Shown here piece by piece: positions 25,636 to 35,629 of a stretch of 44,553 bases of DNA. Source of the DNA: a virus; UHGV virus genome UHGV-0048026. One strand, written 5' to 3'. The notes beneath the pieces are model-generated. The model worked only from the letters and a program-made list of their open reading frames with translations, was not told the DNA's origin and searched no databases. The translations under genes were made by a program, and so were the position numbers. Each line of letters begins with the position of its first letter. Position 1 is the stretch's first letter.

Positions 25636-25788
25636 TTATTCAGATTTACGCAGTAAAGGCCGGAGCACGACCAGCGCCATCGCCACCAGCACACCATCTG
25701 CCAGCACCGACATCAGCCGTCCGGTGAAATCCACCGCCACTACCAGAAACAGCAGGATGGCAGCCAGCACAAGGCGCGCACTTTTCAC
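25636..25788 (-). CDS. small hydrophobic protein (50 aa, GTG start), lysis-cassette membrane component candidate
   Basis: GTG at 25788 overlaps stop of upstream gene (GTGA), SD GGAG 7 nt upstream; VKSARLVLAAILLFLVVAVDFTGRLMSVLADGVLVAMALVVLRPLLRKSE; below the 60-aa cutoff of the ORF track. Confidence 0.35.
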   Translation of the reverse strand: MKSARLVLAAILLFLVVAVDFTGRLMSVLADGVLVAMALVVLRPLLRKSE

Positions 25789-26210
25789 AGGTACTGCTCC
25801 AGCGGTAGCTGAAGCGCCTGCGCAATTTTCTTGAGCTGTGTTTCTTCATCCGGACCAATGCCATCCTGGTCAGCGATATCCAGACACAGGCACAGCACAT
25901 TAACTGCGTCATCAGTACCTGCCACGTCAGCCAGCTGACGAAGGGCTTCAGCATTGGCAGAGCGCGGCGACGCTTCATAACGGGCGCGGATATTTGCACT
26001 CATTTGTGCAATCTCACCGGAGAACGGCGCAAAGGCAGGAAGTGCTGCAATGGTTTTCTCCAGTACCGCGACTTCTTTCGCGTCACAGGTGTCGTCAGCA
26101 TATGCAATGGAATACGCGCCCCAGACGGTCGCCTCCACTGCGTCGCGGTTCTCCATCTTCTTCACTTCGGTAATGGCCTTGCGGGTTTTCTTTTTGAAAA
26201 TACCAAACAT
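25785..26210 (-). CDS. hypothetical protein, possibly TerB-like
   Basis: 141-aa ORF, SD AAGGA upstream; acidic helical protein; family assignment from recollection only. Confidence 0.45.
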   Translation of the reverse strand: MFGIFKKKTRKAITEVKKMENRDAVEATVWGAYSIAYADDTCDAKEVAVLEKTIAALPAFAPFSGEIAQMSANIRARYEASPRSANAEALRQLADVAGTDDAVNVLCLCLDIADQDGIGPDEETQLKKIAQALQLPLEQYL

Positions 26211-26582
26211 CGTGACTTTTCCTTTTAGTGGGTGAGCCTGCGCCCGGGGGTGACCAGCCCACAGAGAAAGTCACACTGACCATCCCGTAAGCTCACCCCT
26301 GAAAGGCTCTGTGGTTTTTGATGTGCGCCGGGCGTGGCGCAAAGAAATGAAATAAGACTTACCTGAAATTAAGGTTAATCTGAGGATTTAAACCATTTTT
26401 AAAGCTTAGTAATATCAACTCGTCTCCTGAAGGAGACAGATACTTATGATTCTTCATGGACTTTGTCCCGCGGCGTTAATCCGACGGCCGCGCTTTTTTT
26501 GCGCCATATTCATCGCTAACTTACATGGCATTGCCACACGGGCATTATCAGTGTCCGTGTTTCTTTTTTTAGGGTTCAGAAT

Positions 26583-26607
26583 AAAAAAAACCGCCCGGTG
26601 GAGGCGG
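26583..26607 (-). terminator. putative intrinsic terminator downstream of tRNA genes
   Basis: minus-strand CCGCC-TCCACCG-GGCGG hairpin followed by U8 (plus A8 at 26583-26590). Confidence 0.5.
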
Positions 26608-26888
26608 TAAAGGATGTATTTCCAGGTTTTGCTTAGTATATGATTAATCTCAATGTCATTTTTAGCGATGTTTACAACATCGGGATGACACATCACCGAC
26701 CCTGTCAGGAAATACAAAATCTCCACCGACAATGCGCCATTCCGATGTTATAAAAAATCAGCACTGATACCGTAATAAATAACATTCATTACAGGACGGG
26801 ATGTAGTAAGGAGTCAGGGTAAAACAAAAACATCCCACACATATAATGTGTCAGTGCCTAACACAACCTAGCATCTATTGTCCTCGGC

Positions 26889-26963
<75 letters not shown>

Positions 26964-26966
26964 ATA

Positions 26967-27042
26967 TGGTGCCGACTACCGGAATCGAACTGGCGACCCG
27001 GTGATTACAAGTCAGTTGCTTTGTCTGCTAAGTTAAATCGGC
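26967..27042 (-). tRNA. tRNA-like sequence, anticodon loop CUUGUAA (UGU, Thr-type) with mismatched stems; possibly pseudo-tRNA
   Basis: 76 nt, 3 nt from tRNA-Gly; good acceptor stem (GCCGATT/AGTCGGC), GTTCGATTC T-loop and CCA, but only 3 of 5 anticodon-stem pairs and mismatches in D and T stems. Confidence 0.4.
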
Positions 27043-27223
27043 AACGGTTCCTCGGAAAAAATAAAACGACCGATATATGCATTATTTCCCTGTCATCTCC
27101 TCGGAACTGACTATTGATATTAATGAGGGCAAACACTATTTCAATAAACATAGTGTCAATATTAGTAAATATATGTATAAATTTCTATCACTCGTGATTG
27201 ATTACAAATAATCACACACATAT

Positions 27224-28270
27224 TTAACTATTTTCTTTTATTTCGCTTACAGTCTGGTTAAATCTCTCTTCTTCCTGCTCCACACCTATTGCATGCCGTC
27301 CCAGCGATAATGCTGCTTTTATTGTTGATCCCGACCCCATAAAAAAATCAGCAACCAAATCTCCCGGATGGCTGCTGGCGGTAATTATCTGACGCAACAT
27401 ATCCGCCGGTTTCTCACAGGGATGTTTGCCGGGGTAATACTGCACAGGCTTGTGCGTCCAGACATCCGTATACGGAACAGCTGCCGATACGGAAAAATAA
27501 CGCCGCAGGGATTTGTACTCTTCCAGCAGGCTGGCATATTGCCGGTTCAGTTCACTGTATGTGCTGACCAGCTGGTGGTGCGGCTTTTCCAGTTCACCGC
27601 GTTGATGTTTTTCTGCTGCAACACGCGCAAACAACGCCTGTAATTTCAGATAATCGCCTTCGTTCGGCAACTGCCACTGACTGATACCAAACCAGTGCGA
27701 AGCCATGTTTTTCTTTCCGGTGACTTCCGCTATCTGTTTTGACGTTATACCCAGTGATTCACGCGCATCACGAAAGTAAGAAATCAGCGGAGCCATCACG
27801 TGCTGCTTAAGCTCGCGCCCCTTTGCCGCATAGCCGTCATTTTTTGGCTGATATGGCCCCTGATAATGTTCAGCAAACAGAATGCGTTCTGTTGCCGGAA
27901 AATACGCCCGCAGGCTTTCCTTGTTGCACCCGTTCCAGCGCCCGGACGGCTTCGCCCAGATAATATGGTTCAGCACATTAAAGCGCTCACGCATCATGAT
28001 TTCGATATCAGATGCCAGGCGATGACCACAGAACAGGTAGAGACTTCCGGCAGGTTTCAGTACCCGCCAGAATTGCGCCAGACACTGATCCAGCCATTTC
28101 AGGTAATCATCGTCGCCCTTCCACTGGTTATCCCAGCCCTCGGGCTTCACTTTAAAGTATGGCGGGTCTGTGACTATCAGATCGACAGAGTTTTCCGGTA
28201 AGGTCTGGATAAATTCCAGGCAATCAGCGTTGATTAACTCACAACTGGATATTTTTACAGTATTAGCCAT
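27224..28270 (-). CDS. orphan DNA methyltransferase (N6-adenine or N4-cytosine, beta-class motif order)
   Basis: 348-aa ORF; motif IV DPPY near N-terminus (LIVTDPPYF), motif I FxGxG near C-terminus (FFMGSGST); no adjacent restriction endonuclease. Confidence 0.85.
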   Translation of the reverse strand: MANTVKISSCELINADCLEFIQTLPENSVDLIVTDPPYFKVKPEGWDNQWKGDDDYLKWLDQCLAQFWRVLKPAGSLYLFCGHRLASDIEIMMRERFNVLNHIIWAKPSGRWNGCNKESLRAYFPATERILFAEHYQGPYQPKNDGYAAKGRELKQHVMAPLISYFRDARESLGITSKQIAEVTGKKNMASHWFGISQWQLPNEGDYLKLQALFARVAAEKHQRGELEKPHHQLVSTYSELNRQYASLLEEYKSLRRYFSVSAAVPYTDVWTHKPVQYYPGKHPCEKPADMLRQIITASSHPGDLVADFFMGSGSTIKAALSLGRHAIGVEQEEERFNQTVSEIKENS

Positions 28271-28410
28271 AGATCAATAAGCACTTCTCTGATAGGCTCA
28301 TACCGCTTTTGCGCAAAGCAGATGGGCCTGAGGTTTGCTTGTGACCCCAACGCATGAGCAGATGGCTGGCAGGTGCCGCTAACACCCACCAGCCGCCCAT
28401 TACCACAAAT

Positions 28411-28434
28411 TAAAAAGCCTTCACTGCGGAAGGC
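28411..28434 (-). terminator. putative intrinsic terminator overlapping the stop of the 65-aa gene
   Basis: minus-strand GCCTTC-CGCAGT-GAAGGC hairpin followed by UUUUUAAUUU. Confidence 0.5.
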
Positions 28435-28618
28435 GTCTGTAACAACCGAACTGATAATCTGCCAGACCCGCCATAACAAGCTGAGTCAGTATTAACTGGC
28501 AGCGTTCGCGTGAAAGGTAAGTATTCTGCGCAATTTCCCCGACGGTCGCTGGTTCGGTGACACTTAATTCATTAAATACCACTCTGGCGGTTTCGGTCAT
28601 ATCCTGCTGTTTTAGCAT
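28421..28618 (-). CDS. small hypothetical protein (65 aa), possible winged-helix regulator
   Basis: ORF with SD AAGGA; own terminator; divergent from porin gene before IS5 insertion; fold assignment is a guess. Confidence 0.45.
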   Translation of the reverse strand: MLKQQDMTETARVVFNELSVTEPATVGEIAQNTYLSRERCQLILTQLVMAGLADYQFGCYRRLPQ

Positions 28619-28875
28619 GTCTTTTTCCTTTTCTGGTTAACGTGACATACCAATAACTCTTGTCTAAAAAGCCAGCAAGCTGAAAGACCGGTATTCGCAA
28701 CCACCAGCGCATTTAACGTCCTGTACCGCTTTTCGGGCACAAAAAAAACCGCTCATCGGCGGGTTTAAGCTGTGTGACGTAGTAATCACTCTTAACATCA
28801 TATTTAAATTTTTACGTACGTAAACCTGTACGTATAACTTTATATTATAAAAATGCAACAACTATAATATTTTAG

Positions 28876-30070
<1,195 letters not shown>

Positions 30071-30220
30071 TTAGATATTTTAGATATTTTAGATATTTTA
30101 GATATTTTAGATATTTTAGATATTTTAGATATTTTAGATATTTTAGATATTTTAGATGTTTTAGATGTTTTAGATGTTTTAGATGTTTTAGATGTTTTAG
30201 ATATTTTAGATATTTTAGAT
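30071..30220. repeat. 9-bp tandem repeat array, about 16.5 copies (TTAGATATT x9, TTAGATGTT x5, TTAGATATT x2, partial)
   Basis: perfect head-to-tail 9-mers read directly from sequence; first unit supplies the IS5 target duplication; array ends about 180 bp upstream of porin ATG. Confidence 0.95.
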
Positions 30221-30399
30221 AAATACTGCATTGAAAATTATCACCAATATTTAACACCACACATAAATGTGATATTGATCACACTATAAACCCTTAAATA
30301 AACCCCATATCTTGAAATAACAGTACCGATTAGATGTATATTTAAGTTGCAGCGACATCATTTTTTAATAATAGTTCCCAAAAGGACTAAGGATTCATA

Positions 30400-31482
30400 A
30401 TGAAAAAATTAACAGTGGCAATCTCTGCTGTAGCAGCATCAGTATTGATAGCTATGTCCGCTCAGGCAGCTGAGATTTATAACAAAGACAGCAATAAATT
30501 AGATCTGTACGGAAAAGTTAATGCCGGGCACTACTTCTCCTCTAACGATAAACACGATGGTGACAAAACTTATGCTCGTCTGGGATTCAAAGGTGAAACC
30601 CAAATCAACGATAAACTGACTGGTTTCGGTCAGTGGGAATATGAATTCAAAGGCAACCATGCTGAATCTCAAGGTTCCTCCGCAGACAAAACCCGTCTTG
30701 CGTTTGCTGGTCTGAAATTCGGCGACTACGGCTCCATCGATTATGGTCGTAACTACGGTGTAGCATACGATATCGGTGCATGGACTAACGTTCTGCCAGA
30801 ATTCGGTGGCGATACCTGGACTCAAACAGATGTATTCATGACTGATCGCACCACAGGTGTTGCAACTTATCGTAACAACGACTTATTTGGTCTGGTTGAT
30901 GGTCTGAACTTTGCTGCTCAGTATCAGGGTAAAAATGACCGCACTGACGTAACTCAAGCTAATGGTGATGGTTTCGGTTTCTCCACTACTTATGAGTATG
31001 AAGGATTCGGCGTAGGTGCAACCTATGCTAAATCTGACCGCACTAATAATCAGGTTATCTACGGTAACAACAGCCTGAATGCATCTGGTCAAAATGCTGA
31101 AGTATGGGCAGCTGGTCTGAAATATGATGCGAGCAACATCTATCTGGCTACTACCTATTCTGAAACCCAAAACATGACTGTTTTTGGTAAAAACCATATT
31201 GCCAACAAAGCACAAAACTTCGAAGTAGTTGCACAATATCAGTTCGACTTCGGTCTGCGTCCGTCCGTTGCTTACCTGCAATCTAAAGGTAAAGACCTTG
31301 GCGTTTTTGGTGACCAAGATTTAGTCAAATATGTTGATGTAGGTGCAACCTATTATTTCAACAAAAATATGTCAACTTTTGTTGATTACAAAATCAACCT
31401 ACTTGACAAAAATGATTTCACCAGAAATCTTGATATAAACGCCGACGATATTGTTGCTGTCGGTATGGTTTACCAGTTCTAA
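30400..31482 (+). CDS. outer membrane porin, Lc/NmpC (OmpC/OmpF family)-like, intact
   Basis: 360-aa ORF with signal peptide [39 protein letters not shown] mature N-terminus and C-terminal ...VYQF; SD AAGGA 7 nt upstream. Confidence 0.92.
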
Positions 31483-31620
31483 TTTTTTTATTAACAAGAT
31501 ATGTTGTGAGGAGATATTTATCTTCCACAACATGTAGGTGATGCCCTCACATCACTGCATTCAGAAAGACATTTTTGTCTTTTCTTTTTAACCTTCTGTT
31601 ATTTATTACCCTAAACTCTT

Positions 31621-31644
31621 GGGGCGTTTTTGCGCCCCTTTTTT
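31621..31644 (+). terminator. intrinsic terminator downstream of porin gene
   Basis: GGGGCG-TTTTTG-CGCCCC hairpin followed by T6. Confidence 0.6.
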
Positions 31645-31669
31645 ATTCAATTTTGCCAGCAAACGTTAG

Positions 31670-32053
31670 TCAATAACACCTAACAACTTCGCGATCCATC
31701 TCGAGACGAACATCCAATGCCATCAACATTCCTTCGACTATTCCTTCAGCCTTCTGAAGTTTTTTTCCTATATATCCATCAGAACAATGATGCTTACAGG
31801 CCAGTGCCATGAACGTCATACCAACCACATAATAATCTATCAGCAAATCATGCAAATCACTGTTGTTCTTTTTCAGACGAGCCATGCAACCACAGATAAC
31901 CATTGCGTCATCATCACAACATTGCGGGCGTGACTTAACCTTTGACGGAATCAGTCCTTTGAATCCCGCAGCAATCGGTGACCAGGTAACATCCTCGTGG
32001 TTATTTGCCACCCATGCCCCCCAACGCTCAAGAACCATCTGGATATCACGCAT
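31670..32053 (-). CDS. late-gene antiterminator Q-like protein (small, DLP12 QuuD-type)
   Basis: 127-aa ORF, Cys/His-rich ([16 protein letters not shown]...ACKHHCSDG), located last in early-right operon immediately before a TTGACT -35-like element; family call from recollection. Confidence 0.7.
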
Positions 32054-32310
32054 CAGCGCAGTACCTCCTGCACCAGCTTTTCAAACTTCCCAACCTTGGT
32101 TTCCAGCTCTGCCACACAGTCCACCAGCTCATCCACTGCTTTTTGTGCGCGATGTTTTGCTTGCATCAGTTCCCTGAGCGCTGGCACCATATCCCGACGA
32201 ATGGCATCTTTTGTTACACCTGTTTTTTCCAGTTGTTCCGCCTGTCGCAACATTTCCTGTGCCTGTTTACGTAATTGTTCAGGGGTAAAAGTCATTGTCT
32301 GGTTGTTCAA
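32053..32310 (-). CDS. hypothetical coiled-coil protein (85 aa)
   Basis: ORF translationally coupled to helicase (ATGA) and Q; helical, K/E/Q-rich. Confidence 0.5.
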
Positions 32311-33698
32311 AAGAAACGCTCCATCTTACTGCTGTCAGTTCGTTTGTTGCTGTATCTGCGCGGCTGAGGCTGCTGCATTGGGGTGGAAAGAATCTGTGCG
32401 CTTTCCTGATCCACAGGCAGAAAATGTCCGTTATAAAAACGCCGATAAATCGTCCCCAGAGAACCGTTACGTTGTTTCGTGATATTGATTTCTGCGATGC
32501 CCCTGGCCTGCGTATCCGGGTTGTACACTTCATCCCTGTAAAGCATCAGAATGATGTCTGCATCCGCCTCTATTTCTCCGGAATTTTTCAGGTCTGAGTT
32601 CATGGGGCGTTTATTGGGTCTGGACTCCACACCGCGGGAGAGCTGGCTCAGCGCAATCAACGGAAAACCACCGGATTTTGCCAGGCCTTTAAGCCCCTTT
32701 GAGATTTCACCCACGGCAAGGTCATGACGCCCCGTGGTTCGGGTTTTTATCAGTCCGAGATAATCAACCACCACCAGCGCCGTTTCCGGATGTTTAATCA
32801 GGTGGTGTTTCGTTGTTGCGCATATCTCGTCAATGGTCAGGTTCGCCTGGTCCACCATCCAGATATTGCGCCCGGTCATCCGCCCCACTCCTTGTGAGAA
32901 ACGTGCCCAGTCTTCGTCTTCAAAGTGAGTGACAGATTTCAGGCGTGATACCGGCATTCCTCCAGCCGCAGATACCATGCGTTCACCAATCTGGATGTTC
33001 GCCATTTCCATTGTGAACAGAAGAACACCATGCCCCTGCTCAGTCACCTTGTCGATGATATCCAGCGCCAGTTCGGTTTTGCCCATCGAAGGACGTGCAG
33101 CAATAAATACCAGGTCGCCAGGCTCCATGCCGCCCGTTTTTGCGTCCAGTTCATCAATACCGGTCATCAACGTTCTGGATTTTTCCAGTCCCTGATTCCG
33201 GCATTCAACACGCTCAACCACTTCCGGAAGCACATCATCAATATGTACCGGCTGAATAACGCCCTTTTCCGTCGACAATGAGGCCATCATGTTCTGCGCA
33301 TCCTTCAGGGCATCTTCAGCTGCTTCACAGGTATGCGCATCACGTAATTTCTGCAGCGCCTCATTCAGTGTTTTTTCTGCATCGCGCAATGCGGCATTGC
33401 GTCGCAACGCTGCAACATAGTGCTCCAGTGAAGACTTCACCCAAGTTTTACGCCCAGTATCAGTAATCACCGGAGCAAGTTCCGGCATCTCATTGCACAG
33501 CAGCACAGGATCAATCACACCTGAAACACGAGCCTGTCTGCAGATGCCTGTGTAGATATCCCTATACGCTCGTACAGAAAAAACGTCCGCAGGTAGTGTG
33601 GCCAGAATATCCATCACTTCAGGATCTGCCCCACGCAGAAAGAACGCGCCAATGACAGCGCCTTCCAGGTCATCGTTACGCCAGACTGGGGTTGTCAT
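32307..33698 (-). CDS. replicative DNA helicase, DnaB-like
   Basis: about 463 aa from ATG 33698 (overlaps upstream stop, ATGA); Walker A GxxxGKT-type motif (ARPSMGKTELALD), RecA-like core, C-terminal helicase motifs. Confidence 0.88.
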   Translation of the reverse strand: MTTPVWRNDDLEGAVIGAFFLRGADPEVMDILATLPADVFSVRAYRDIYTGICRQARVSGVIDPVLLCNEMPELAPVITDTGRKTWVKSSLEHYVAALRRNAALRDAEKTLNEALQKLRDAHTCEAAEDALKDAQNMMASLSTEKGVIQPVHIDDVLPEVVERVECRNQGLEKSRTLMTGIDELDAKTGGMEPGDLVFIAARPSMGKTELALDIIDKVTEQGHGVLLFTMEMANIQIGERMVSAAGGMPVSRLKSVTHFEDEDWARFSQGVGRMTGRNIWMVDQANLTIDEICATTKHHLIKHPETALVVVDYLGLIKTRTTGRHDLAVGEISKGLKGLAKSGGFPLIALSQLSRGVESRPNKRPMNSDLKNSGEIEADADIILMLYRDEVYNPDTQARGIAEINITKQRNGSLGTIYRRFYNGHFLPVDQESAQILSTPMQQPQPRRYSNKRTDSSKMERFF

Positions 33699-34583: not shown

Positions 34584-35408
34584 TCAGAATGTCAGTTTGT
34601 CACTGGATTTACCGAATTTGTCAGACATGGCTCCCAGGCCAGCCAGGACATCGACCTGTCGCTGTCGCCCACCTCCGGGAGCGGCTGGCTGTTGCCAGAA
34701 TTCTTCGAAGTGACGATCGGGTCCAAAGAACGTCGCGGCCTGCTTCACGAACTGTGTGCCGGTATTTCCTGTAGCACGTACCCAGGCGGCATAACGTCTC
34801 ACACCATCAAGCATGGTCTCCGGTTTTATTCCCTCCCTGATACGGGCTTTCCAGGCTTTGAAGGCTGCTGACTTGGAATTGCCACCAGCACGTTTGGGAT
34901 ATTCCTGCCAGGCCTGTTCAAATTCCGGTGAATATTCCTGTCGGGCAGAGCGCGCTGGTGCAGACGCGTCAGCGGGTGCGCCAATTGTTGGTTCATTGAC
35001 TGGTTCTTTGACTGGTTCAAAAGAGTGACTGGTTCTGGGTGAATCTCCTGCACTACCCCCTGGTGCAACTCCTGCACCACCTGGTGAATTTGCTGCACTA
35101 GGTAGTGAATTATTTGCACTACCCCCTGGTGAATCTTTTGCACCATCAAGACGAAGAAGATAAATATTGCTCGAGTTCCCTTTTTCACCTTTCCGGGAAA
35201 CTTTTTTTACCAGTCCGGATTCACAAAGAGCCGTAATATGATTCATCACAGAACGTTTGCTAATCTCGCACTGATCAGCAATATGCTGATAGCTGGGCCA
35301 GCACTCGCCCTGATCGCTGGCATTATCAGCCAGCTTAATCAGAACCAGTTTTCGCAACGGATTTCCCACGCGAATTTTCATCGCTTTCACCATCAGCTCC
35401 ATGCTCAT
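34584..35408 (-). CDS. replication initiator (O-like, N-terminal HTH, Gly/Ser/Pro-rich linker)
   Basis: 274-aa ORF; N-terminal HTH-like segment; linker encoded by iteron-containing DNA; position upstream of loader and helicase. Confidence 0.75.
   Translation of the reverse strand: MSMELMVKAMKIRVGNPLRKLVLIKLADNASDQGECWPSYQHIADQCEISKRSVMNHITALCESGLVKKVSRKGEKGNSSNIYLLRLDGAKDSPGGSANNSLPSAANSPGGAGVAPGGSAGDSPRTSHSFEPVKEPVNEPTIGAPADASAPARSARQEYSPEFEQAWQEYPKRAGGNSKSAAFKAWKARIREGIKPETMLDGVRRYAAWVRATGNTGTQFVKQAATFFGPDRHFEEFWQQPAAPGGGRQRQVDVLAGLGAMSDKFGKSSDKLTF
34997..35135. repeat. putative replication origin iterons inside initiator gene
   Basis: three copies of TGACTGGTTC (34997, 35009, 35026) and four copies of TGCAC(T/C)-N-GGTG 17-19-mers (35049, 35072, 35096, 35115), followed by a moderately AT-rich stretch; lambda-type ori-in-O arrangement. 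Confidence 0.5.
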
Positions 35409-35629
35409 AACACACCTCCCAGGCGTTTAAACATTTTTCCGGACTGAAACGCCATCAACGGATAGCTAATGGTGTAGTTACGCCCCAGTAATTCACACAC
35501 GACTTTCTGGCTTTCGGTGCTGACCAGGCAAACCCGCAGAACGTGACCGTTGCTGGTGGCGAACCACTGCCCCACACGGGGGCAACGGTTGTATCGGTGA
35601 TACAGGGAATTAACGATGCGGCGAATCAT
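35405..35629 (-). CDS. hypothetical protein (74 aa)
   Basis: ORF overlapping neighbours by 4 nt on both sides (operon coupling). Confidence 0.5.
   Translation of the reverse strand: MIRRIVNSLYHRYNRCPRVGQWFATSNGHVLRVCLVSTESQKVVCELLGRNYTISYPLMAFQSGKMFKRLGGVL

Follow-up and report, generated by a model that had tools for sequence, protein, structure and literature searches.

M.EcoGII, a prophage-borne orphan enzyme found with M.EcoGI in Escherichia coli O104:H4 C227-11, methylates adenine in any context in DNA, single-stranded DNA and RNA; it is unexpressed in its own lysogen, is harmful once expressed and, on expression, methylates DNA extensively in vivo (PMC5778455). The enzyme is a standard reagent for chromatin and RNA footprinting, though its biology is little described: beyond the prophage location and the lack of expression, the M.EcoGII literature that we searched says very little about it. 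Here we analyse a member of the same family in the virus genome UHGV-0048026, a stretch of 44,553 nucleotides (nt) that we call the window, together with the gene for a 65-amino-acid (aa) protein that lies 5' of it and the structured leader between the two genes. In the explanation that we consider likely, the methyltransferase is of the M.EcoGII type and is the second gene of a late operon dependent on the antiterminator Q, in which it is kept off in the lysogen and acts late as a broad anti-restriction enzyme.

In lambdoid phages, including the StxS region of Stx phages, a constitutive late promoter (pR') is followed by an early terminator (tR'), and genes lie between Q and stx or lysis (PMC7547250). 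The locus in the window resembles this arrangement. It differs from the Stx phages of strain Sakai in the length of the pR'-tR' transcript, 258 nt there and a predicted ~50 nt here, and from Stx phages in having a different Q allele, a second hairpin and a leader. Homology with StxS was considered and rejected, the Sakai pR'-tR' unit being different in length.

Another parallel is the com-mom module of phage Mu. Mu Com is a small protein that relieves an inhibitory structure in the mRNA and thereby allows a toxic DNA-modification gene to be translated. Mu has, as we propose for the window, a toxic and broadly acting adenine-modifying enzyme that is made late only and has an anti-restriction role, and both loci have a small-protein gene (~62-65 aa) just 5' and mRNA structure over the start of the modification gene. 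Mom differs in its product, N6-carbamoylmethyl-adenine, and is unrelated in sequence to the window methyltransferase; Com is a zinc finger whose gene overlaps mom, whereas the small protein of the window is an acidic winged helix encoded 150 nt away and dispensable in many loci. Transcription in Mu is controlled by C, Dam and OxyR, whereas the window locus appears to be antiterminated by Q. Type II systems with a controller (C) protein also have a small gene of helix-turn-helix type 5' of the methyltransferase gene. Unlike these, the window locus has no nuclease, a winged helix in place of an Xre-type helix-turn-helix and no identified C-box, and a terminator-like hairpin and a 135-nt structured leader part its two genes.

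An orphan methyltransferase of the M.EcoGII family

The window is 100% identical to the chromosome of E. coli SE11 (NC_011415.1), where it belongs to a lambdoid, phiP27-like prophage at the site yecE with nearly all genes on the minus strand (Table 1). The methyltransferase matches the Pfam profile PF01555 (N6_N4_Mtase) over residues 29-340 with 155 bits (cut-off 26.7, E=3.9e-45). DPPY at residues 35-38 precedes FFMGSGST at 309-316, placing motif IV before motif I with the target recognition domain (TRD) between them, and solved relatives align to the protein as two blocks on either side of an insert. An earlier note on this DNA had described a 348-aa amino-methyltransferase of permuted type without a cognate endonuclease. 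Motif order and profile match confirm the permuted, beta-class assignment, and the orphan status is borne out as well: the annotation of the prophage with its flanking genes, 63 features in all, includes neither a nuclease nor a second methyltransferase. The adjoining genes, which are tRNA, TerB, IS5 and ompC, are not those of a type II restriction-modification system. As a gene call, the methyltransferase is ordinary and belongs to a known, well-characterised family.

The 348-aa product (METHYLTRANSFERASE; 27224-28270) is 84.8% (~85%) identical to M.EcoGII over 347 aligned residues, with the M.EcoGII sequence taken from the SUPREM supplement, and 88% identical to the reconstructed ancestor Anc291, both values being lower bounds. 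Identity to M.EcoGII is 96.3% in the N-terminal catalytic part, 83.3% in the TRD and 72% in the C-terminal part. DPPY, FxGxG and a central TRD are common to the two enzymes (348 and 349 aa); the window allele differs in its C-terminal quarter, and its activity is predicted from sequence. Anc291 and other reconstructed ancestors methylate DNA and RNA, and the products of Anc291 and SUPREM (Anc284) had no discernible motif by nanopore direct-RNA sequencing (PMC11551740). Because the identity is at least 85% to M.EcoGII (83% in the TRD) and 88% to Anc291, both experimentally non-specific, the window methyltransferase is very probably without sequence specificity, and the statement in the earlier note that its target specificity is unknown is not upheld.

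According to Murray et al., phage 1720a-02 encodes a very similar enzyme (PMC5778455), and this phage matches the methyltransferase locus (H35). The module of small gene and leader is also present in loci whose methyltransferase is ~94% identical to M.EcoGII; it is from these relatives, not from the C227-11 genome itself, that we take the context of the M.EcoGII locus. The M.EcoGII study cloned the open reading frame (ORF) alone and mentions neither the late-operon position nor the winged-helix gene nor the leader (PMC5778455).

A conserved place downstream of a putative late promoter

We collected 80 loci with the methyltransferase profile, one genome per species. The gene order in phiP27 and Stx2a_WGPS2 is Q, variable cargo, small gene, methyltransferase, tRNAs, stx and lysis. 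In the cargo-free loci L020, L039, L063, L074 and L079, only ~210-250 bp separate the end of Q from the small gene. In all genera the interval between Q and the small gene contains a short palindrome, a -10-like hexamer, GTTAAGAGTG and a strong hairpin followed by U6-8, and in L020, L039, L063 and L074 this layout lies directly 3' of Q. We infer that the interval is a late promoter pR' with a Q-binding element and a terminator tR'. In the window the distance from Q to pR' is 2.85 kb, with an ompC-like gene, a 9-bp tandem array and IS5 inserted between them. The tR' hairpin of the window (CCGC...GCGG stem) has a folding energy (dG) of -5.7 kcal/mol, as compared to -11 to -15.6 in phiP27, WGPS2 and other genera, and read-through from this weakened tR' into the small gene may be higher in SE11. 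The conserved box CAAGAGTTATTGGTATGTCAC (28642-28662) is a candidate operator, weak promoter or RNA element.

On the coding strand, the promoter scan gave no sigma-70-like promoter from 28271 to 28796, and the stretch from the methyltransferase stop to the tRNAs holds no terminator-like site. Because there is no promoter between pR' and the methyltransferase, and because the place behind pR' and tR' is conserved, the small gene and the methyltransferase appear to be a fixed part of a Q-dependent late operon and not a moron. The suggestion in the earlier note of a moron is thus not borne out, as the pair has no promoter or terminator of its own and is conserved in the late operon across many genera. 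The M.EcoGII family would then be a fixed late-operon gene of many enterobacterial lambdoid phages, Stx phages included. The position behind tR' and the second hairpin, H0, which holds the stop codon of the small gene, would keep the enzyme silent in the lysogen, and late-operon placement would provide a concrete explanation for the silence and the toxicity of the methyltransferase. The methyltransferase is not mentioned in the comparative paper on Stx pR', and neither that comparison nor the M.EcoGII papers mention the leader or the stop-codon hairpin. Linkage to tRNAs was also tried and rejected, with tRNA genes 3' of the methyltransferase in 1 of 60 related loci.

A conserved and covarying leader

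Whether or not the small gene is present, the nucleotide sequence of the ~135-nt leader is conserved in Escherichia, Salmonella, Citrobacter, Klebsiella, Enterobacter, Mixta, Rosenbergiella, Yersinia, Hafnia, Ewingella and Lonsdalea. In hairpin P1, 8 of 12 pairs show changes on both sides and 94.8% of cells are paired. The central pair of P2 varies between pair types (CG27/AU10/UA8/UG4, zero unpaired), and P2 is a perfect 9-bp helix in L077 and L184. Compensatory changes in P3 were found in the divergent clade of Ewingella, Hafnia and Yersinia variants. All five whole-structure measures beat 500/500 column shuffles, and slid controls fall to ~35% paired. In Xenorhabdus and Photorhabdus the leaders are short, retaining the hairpin and a long P1 and lacking P2 and P3. 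RNAalifold alone gave part of the structure, and the G-richness of the sequence made an unbiased scan for helices noisy.

A covariance model built from 50 leader sequences found a single site in the window and aligned 101 viral-contig sites (51 distinct) that were absent from its building set. In this viral set four of the five measures again beat 500/500 shuffles, the count of further pair types being reached in 15/500, and the central pair of P2 was CG18/UA18/AU14/UG1. Of the 119 viral contigs found by the leader motif alone, 118 have an M.EcoGII-type gene whose start is 52-54 nt past the motif, and the last contig ends too early to judge (118/118 testable). The leader is thus strictly linked to M.EcoGII-type genes. 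Rfam 15 has no family for the leader at E<=10, the region 28240-28860 giving two chance-level hits (E ~8.5); over 26000-32500 at E<=1 it returned nothing but tRNAs and chance-level hits elsewhere, and no family for the pR' region. The leader appears to be an undescribed structured element, conserved and covarying. In the earlier note the two genes and the hairpin had been seen correctly, and the leader between them had been missed.

Table 1. Coordinates in the window of the features of the methyltransferase locus.
Feature	Position	Strand	Basis or remark
M.EcoGII-family beta-class N6-adenine methyltransferase coding sequence, 348 aa	27224..28270	-	RefSeq WP_000024309.1; ORF; PF01555
Methyltransferase start region UGCUUAUUGAUCUAUG, can pair with GGUCACAAGCA (28336-28346)	28268..28283	-	Minimum free energy (MFE) fold; 91% of cells paired
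Conserved structured leader, H0 to methyltransferase ATG	28271..28408	-	Covariance-model match 28265-28408, 122.8 bits
P3, irregular hairpin GGCCCAUCUGCUUUG...AAAGCGGUAUGAGCC with conserved C.A mismatch	28295..28328	-	Compensatory changes
P2, hairpin UCUGCU...AGCAAA	28334..28362	-	Covariation; exclusive of P1 extension and start-region pairing
P1, long hairpin GGCUGGUGGGUG...CACCUGCCAGCC	28364..28394	-	Covariation; extendable by AUGGGC (28395-28400):GCUCAU (28354-28359)
Hairpin H0 (28417-28434) holding the TGA of the small gene, then T5AAT3	28405..28434	-	Terminator scan; conserved hairpin
65-aa stand-alone winged-helix protein, pI 5.1	28421..28618	-	ORF; AF2 model; phrog_331
Conserved box CAAGAGTTATTGGTATGTCAC, ~25 nt 5' of the ATG of the 65-aa gene	28642..28662	-	Consensus CAGAGTTATCTGTATGTCAC; kept from Escherichia to Xenorhabdus
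tR'-like intrinsic terminator CCGCCGAUGAGCGG + U8, degenerate here	28741..28762	-	Hairpin of relatives at the equivalent place
pR'-like late promoter TTTACG-16-TATGAT, palindrome ACGTACGT between the hexamers	28797..28824	-	Promoter scan; pR' assignment inferred
Antiterminator Q gene	31670..32053	-	RefSeq annotation; phrog_79, E=1.6e-52

Alternative pairings at the start of the methyltransferase

The start of the methyltransferase follows the invariant UGAUCUAUG and has no canonical Shine-Dalgarno sequence, and an in-frame UGA lies 3 nt 5' of the AUG. GGUCACAAGCA (28336-28346) can pair with 28272-28283 of the start region, and changes in this pairing turn G.U into A-U and AU into GC. The P2 helix shares segments with both the P1 extension and the start-region pairing, so that the foldings are mutually exclusive. 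Further alternatives are UGGGC:GCCCA and GUGAGC:GCUUAC. In Mixta mediterraneensis (L010; A2 columns 58/132), a G-to-A change in the invariant AAUGGGCGG occurs together with a C-to-U change in GGCCCA, consistent with a single compensatory event in a UGGGC/GCCCA helix, which would be the closing stem of a three-way junction enclosing P1 and P2. In the window, the MFE structure is the fold that sequesters the start. With each alternative enforced in turn on 50 aligned leaders, the start-sequestering fold came out ahead in 40, with a mean advantage of 3.8 kcal/mol; the leader of Yersinia (L077) favours the P2 fold.

The leader resembles an attenuator in its logic, 1:2 and 3:4 versus 2:3. As in translational attenuation of the ermC type, there are four segments with exclusive pairings, AUGGGC:GCUCAU and GGUCACAAGC:GCUUAnUGAUC competing with P2, and the last segment contains the start region of an adenine N6-methyltransferase gene. 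Unlike ermC, the leader here has no conserved leader peptide, and the analogy is one of logic only. A peptide read from the AUG of the invariant AAUGGGCGG (consensus MGGWWVL-stop) was not adopted: the ORF runs from 7 to >50 codons with unconserved sequence. This AUG is absent from some Xenorhabdus leaders. Codons 2-15 of the methyltransferase (28226-28267, minus strand) have a synonymous entropy of 0.60, as compared to the gene average of 1.30 (49 orthologues), which points to an overlapping constraint, for which translation initiation, RNA pairing and an antisense promoter are candidates.

With an assurance that falls a little short of even, we propose that H0 and the ~135-nt leader are an undescribed riboregulator dedicated to M.EcoGII-type methyltransferases, acting as a translational switch or as the target or template of a cis-antisense RNA. 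Upstream translation or the winged-helix protein might set the switch, and in either form the element would confine a genome-wide adenine methylase to phage DNA at a late stage of infection. A leader that proved to be a switch would be a compact natural device that holds a lethal enzyme off and releases it on cue, and a handle on whether hypermethylated Stx-phage DNA escapes restriction and spreads wider.

The stop-codon hairpin and the 65-aa protein

H0 (GCCTTCcgcagtGAAGGC, 28434-28417, followed by TTTTTAATTT) has a 6-bp stem with 4 GC pairs and a 6-nt loop, and the TGA stop (28423-28421) lies across its loop-stem junction. A GC-rich stem-loop with a U-tract has the form of an intrinsic terminator; the terminator scan is unenriched in the H0 region (4 sites as compared to 2.3 +/- 1.7 in shuffles). 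H0-type hairpins with a median dG of -9.1 kcal/mol are found 9-16 nt 5' of the invariant AAUGGGCGG in 98/107 distinct relatives, their arms showing compensating changes as the C-terminal codons vary, and just 45/107 variants have a U-run of at least 4 after the hairpin. In Xenorhabdus and Photorhabdus the stop codon again lies in the hairpin loop, without a U-tract, and L077, L082 and L071, which have no small gene, keep the hairpin as a good terminator. Judged by its sequence, H0 is a real terminator in the clade of the window, and the feature conserved across the family is the hairpin with the stop codon, not the U-tract.

The terminator that the earlier note had placed over the stop of the 65-aa gene is therefore present, and the hairpin and U-tract are real in this clade. 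The further argument, that the small gene is separately terminated and not simply a co-transcribed controller, is not supported. The protein, a winged helix without an Xre-type helix-turn-helix, does not have the form of a controller. The hairpin would not uncouple the two genes, because Q-modified polymerase reads through terminators, and they would be co-transcribed whenever the late operon is on.

The small ORF is a genuine gene, with homologues of 63-67 aa at the equivalent place in ~57/80 genome loci and 102/119 viral loci, down to 38-50% identity in Xenorhabdus and Photorhabdus. The AF2 model of the protein (pLDDT 90.8) has three helices and a beta-hairpin wing, a fold that matches generic winged helices such as the O-methyltransferase dimerisation domains, IclR, MarR and SelB. 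Pfam gave sub-threshold matches to TrmB (18 bits) and MarR_2 and none to HTH_3, and NCBIfam and PADLOC gave no match. The protein has two conserved cysteines, which does not correspond to a Com-like zinc finger. The family comprises 85 representative clusters among 1.84 billion proteins. All are small and stand-alone except two long proteins that match weakly and in part, and the search of all representative proteins turned up neither a fusion to a methyltransferase nor a distant informative relative. A role as obligatory activator is excluded, because loci without the small gene retain an unchanged leader and methyltransferase; a Com-like, C-like or inhibitor role is no more than a possibility.

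Proposed role of the locus

The operon is ordered as pR', tR', the 65-aa winged-helix gene, H0, the 135-nt leader, the methyltransferase, tRNAs, cargo, lysis and virion genes. In the lysogen, pR' transcripts would stop at tR' and, in the clade of the window, at H0. In mRNA that reads through, the stable fold of the leader may pair the region just 5' of an AUG without a Shine-Dalgarno sequence, leaving the toxic enzyme off. Upon induction, Q would render RNA polymerase resistant to terminators and the enzyme would be made late, when it would broadly methylate replicating phage DNA before packaging. The progeny would be protected from many adenine-sensitive restriction systems in the next host. 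Anti-restriction, for which the earlier note had named the enzyme a candidate, is kept as its most plausible role.

Several observations weigh against this explanation. The literature that we searched contains no report of phage-DNA protection by the M.EcoGII family. The C-terminal stretch in which the window allele is just 72% identical to M.EcoGII is its last 89 residues, and the reference sequences of M.EcoGII and Anc291 were machine-read from supplements with errors. The pR' and tR' assignments come from architecture; the weakened tR' and IS5, 51 bp upstream of the promoter, could let silencing leak in SE11; and with a replication gene annotated as a pseudogene, the prophage may be non-inducible. 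In the leader, the start-region pairing consists of nearly invariant bases and therefore shows little covariation, and it is lost in L184. The mismatches of P2 and P3 are almost all C.A, which is G.U on the opposite strand.

Alternative explanations

This strand bias bears on which RNA carries the structure. Some restriction-modification systems and type I toxin-antitoxin loci have antisense RNAs that silence genes by pairing, and a cis-antisense small RNA on the plus strand across the 5' region of the methyltransferase might likewise silence the toxic gene by pairing with the leader and the start, although we regard this as unlikely. Canonical pairs in P2 amount to 98.9% on the antisense and 75.3% on the sense strand, those in P3a to 93.7% and 78.3%, and the antisense-favouring bias of both helices was repeated in 107 sequences; the conserved mismatches are almost exclusively C.A or A.C. 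Synonymous variability is halved in the first 15 codons of the methyltransferase, as expected of an overlapping element, and overall fold stability is equal on both strands, with energies of -54.1 (sense) and -53.1 kcal/mol (antisense) that do not discriminate between them. However, the plus strand shows no promoter-like site at or around the 5' end of the methyltransferase gene, the leader has no terminator on that strand, and the best conserved promoter candidate is weak by eye. The P1 extension, the start-region pairing and H0 contain G.U pairs that exist on the sense strand only, and the C.A states can also be reached by simple transitions from the G-C pairs of L077 and L184. It is doubtful, though somewhat easier to credit, that the 65-aa protein is a dedicated regulator of the methyltransferase, whether Com-like, controller-like or an antitoxin-like inhibitor. 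Its gene lies directly 5' at a fixed distance across genera, its family is narrow and always stand-alone, its confident winged-helix model has the RNA-binding SelB and methyltransferase dimerisation domains among its matches, and the two genes are separated by a structured leader in which the start site is sequestered. Against this, leader and methyltransferase are fully conserved without the small gene in L008, L009, L012, L013, L017, L066, L077 and L082 and likewise in 14 viral contigs; the protein is acidic (pI 5.1), has neither Com-like zinc-finger cysteines nor an Xre-type helix-turn-helix, and is nowhere fused to a methyltransferase.

Other alternatives concern the activity of the enzyme. 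Its physiological substrate might be RNA and not DNA, either phage or host transcripts or the neighbouring phage tRNAs. M.EcoGII and the reconstructed ancestors do methylate RNA in vitro, and tRNA genes lie 3' of the methyltransferase in the window; this holds for just 1/60 related loci, however, and expression of M.EcoGII leads to extensive DNA methylation in vivo, which leaves an RNA substrate very improbable. Slightly less credible still is a sequence-specific orphan active in the lysogen with an epigenetic or lysogenic-conversion function, the epigenetic moron of the earlier note. The methyltransferase is an orphan, the weakened tR' and the nearby IS5 could permit some expression in SE11, and NCBI labels relatives with the generic name site-specific DNA-methyltransferase. 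The enzyme is nevertheless 85-88% identical, TRD included, to enzymes shown to lack specificity, its orthologues are silent in lysogens and toxic on expression, and the gene has two terminators and a folded leader in front of it and no promoter of its own. We give hardly any credence to a remnant of a restriction-modification system that has lost its nuclease. In phiP27 a GIY-YIG nuclease gene (L22) does lie just 5' of L23 and L24 on the same strand, but the slot 5' of pR' is a variable cargo site, holding two opposite-strand ORFs in WGPS2 and ompC and IS5 in the window and empty in L020, L039, L063 and L074, and a non-specific methyltransferase needs no cognate nuclease.

Neighbouring features of the prophage

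In the variable cargo slot between Q and pR', the window carries an ompC-like porin gene on the opposite strand (30400-31482, plus). At this slot phiP27 has its GIY-YIG nuclease gene (L002:7562-8791) and Stx2a_WGPS2 its two opposite-strand ORFs. A complete IS5 of 1195 bp (28876-30070), with a 4-bp TTAG duplication on its flanks, lies 51 bp 5' of the pR'-like -35 hexamer, and its insertion might alter the activity of the late promoter. It abuts a tandem array of 16.8 copies of the 9-bp unit TTAGATATT (30071-30221, 98% match), which lies between IS5 and the ompC-like gene and translates into YFRYFR/ISKISK pseudo-ORFs. RefSeq annotates the replication-region helix-turn-helix gene ECSE_RS10800 (~34660-35410, minus) as a partial pseudogene.

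Genes for a TerB-family protein (141 aa) and a DUF3927 protein (25636-26210, minus) occupy the position of stx in related phages and are presumably late-operon cargo. Beside tRNA-Gly(UCC) there is a second tRNA-like gene (26970-27042, minus) with an Rfam score of 43.7 bits and no ARAGORN prediction; other strains have it annotated as tRNA-Thr, and the copy in the window may be degenerate. The AT-rich spacer that parts the methyltransferase stop from the tRNA genes holds a promoter-like site, TTGAAA-16-TAATAT (27117-27144, minus), from which the tRNAs might be transcribed on their own; such independent transcription is reported for Stx phages.

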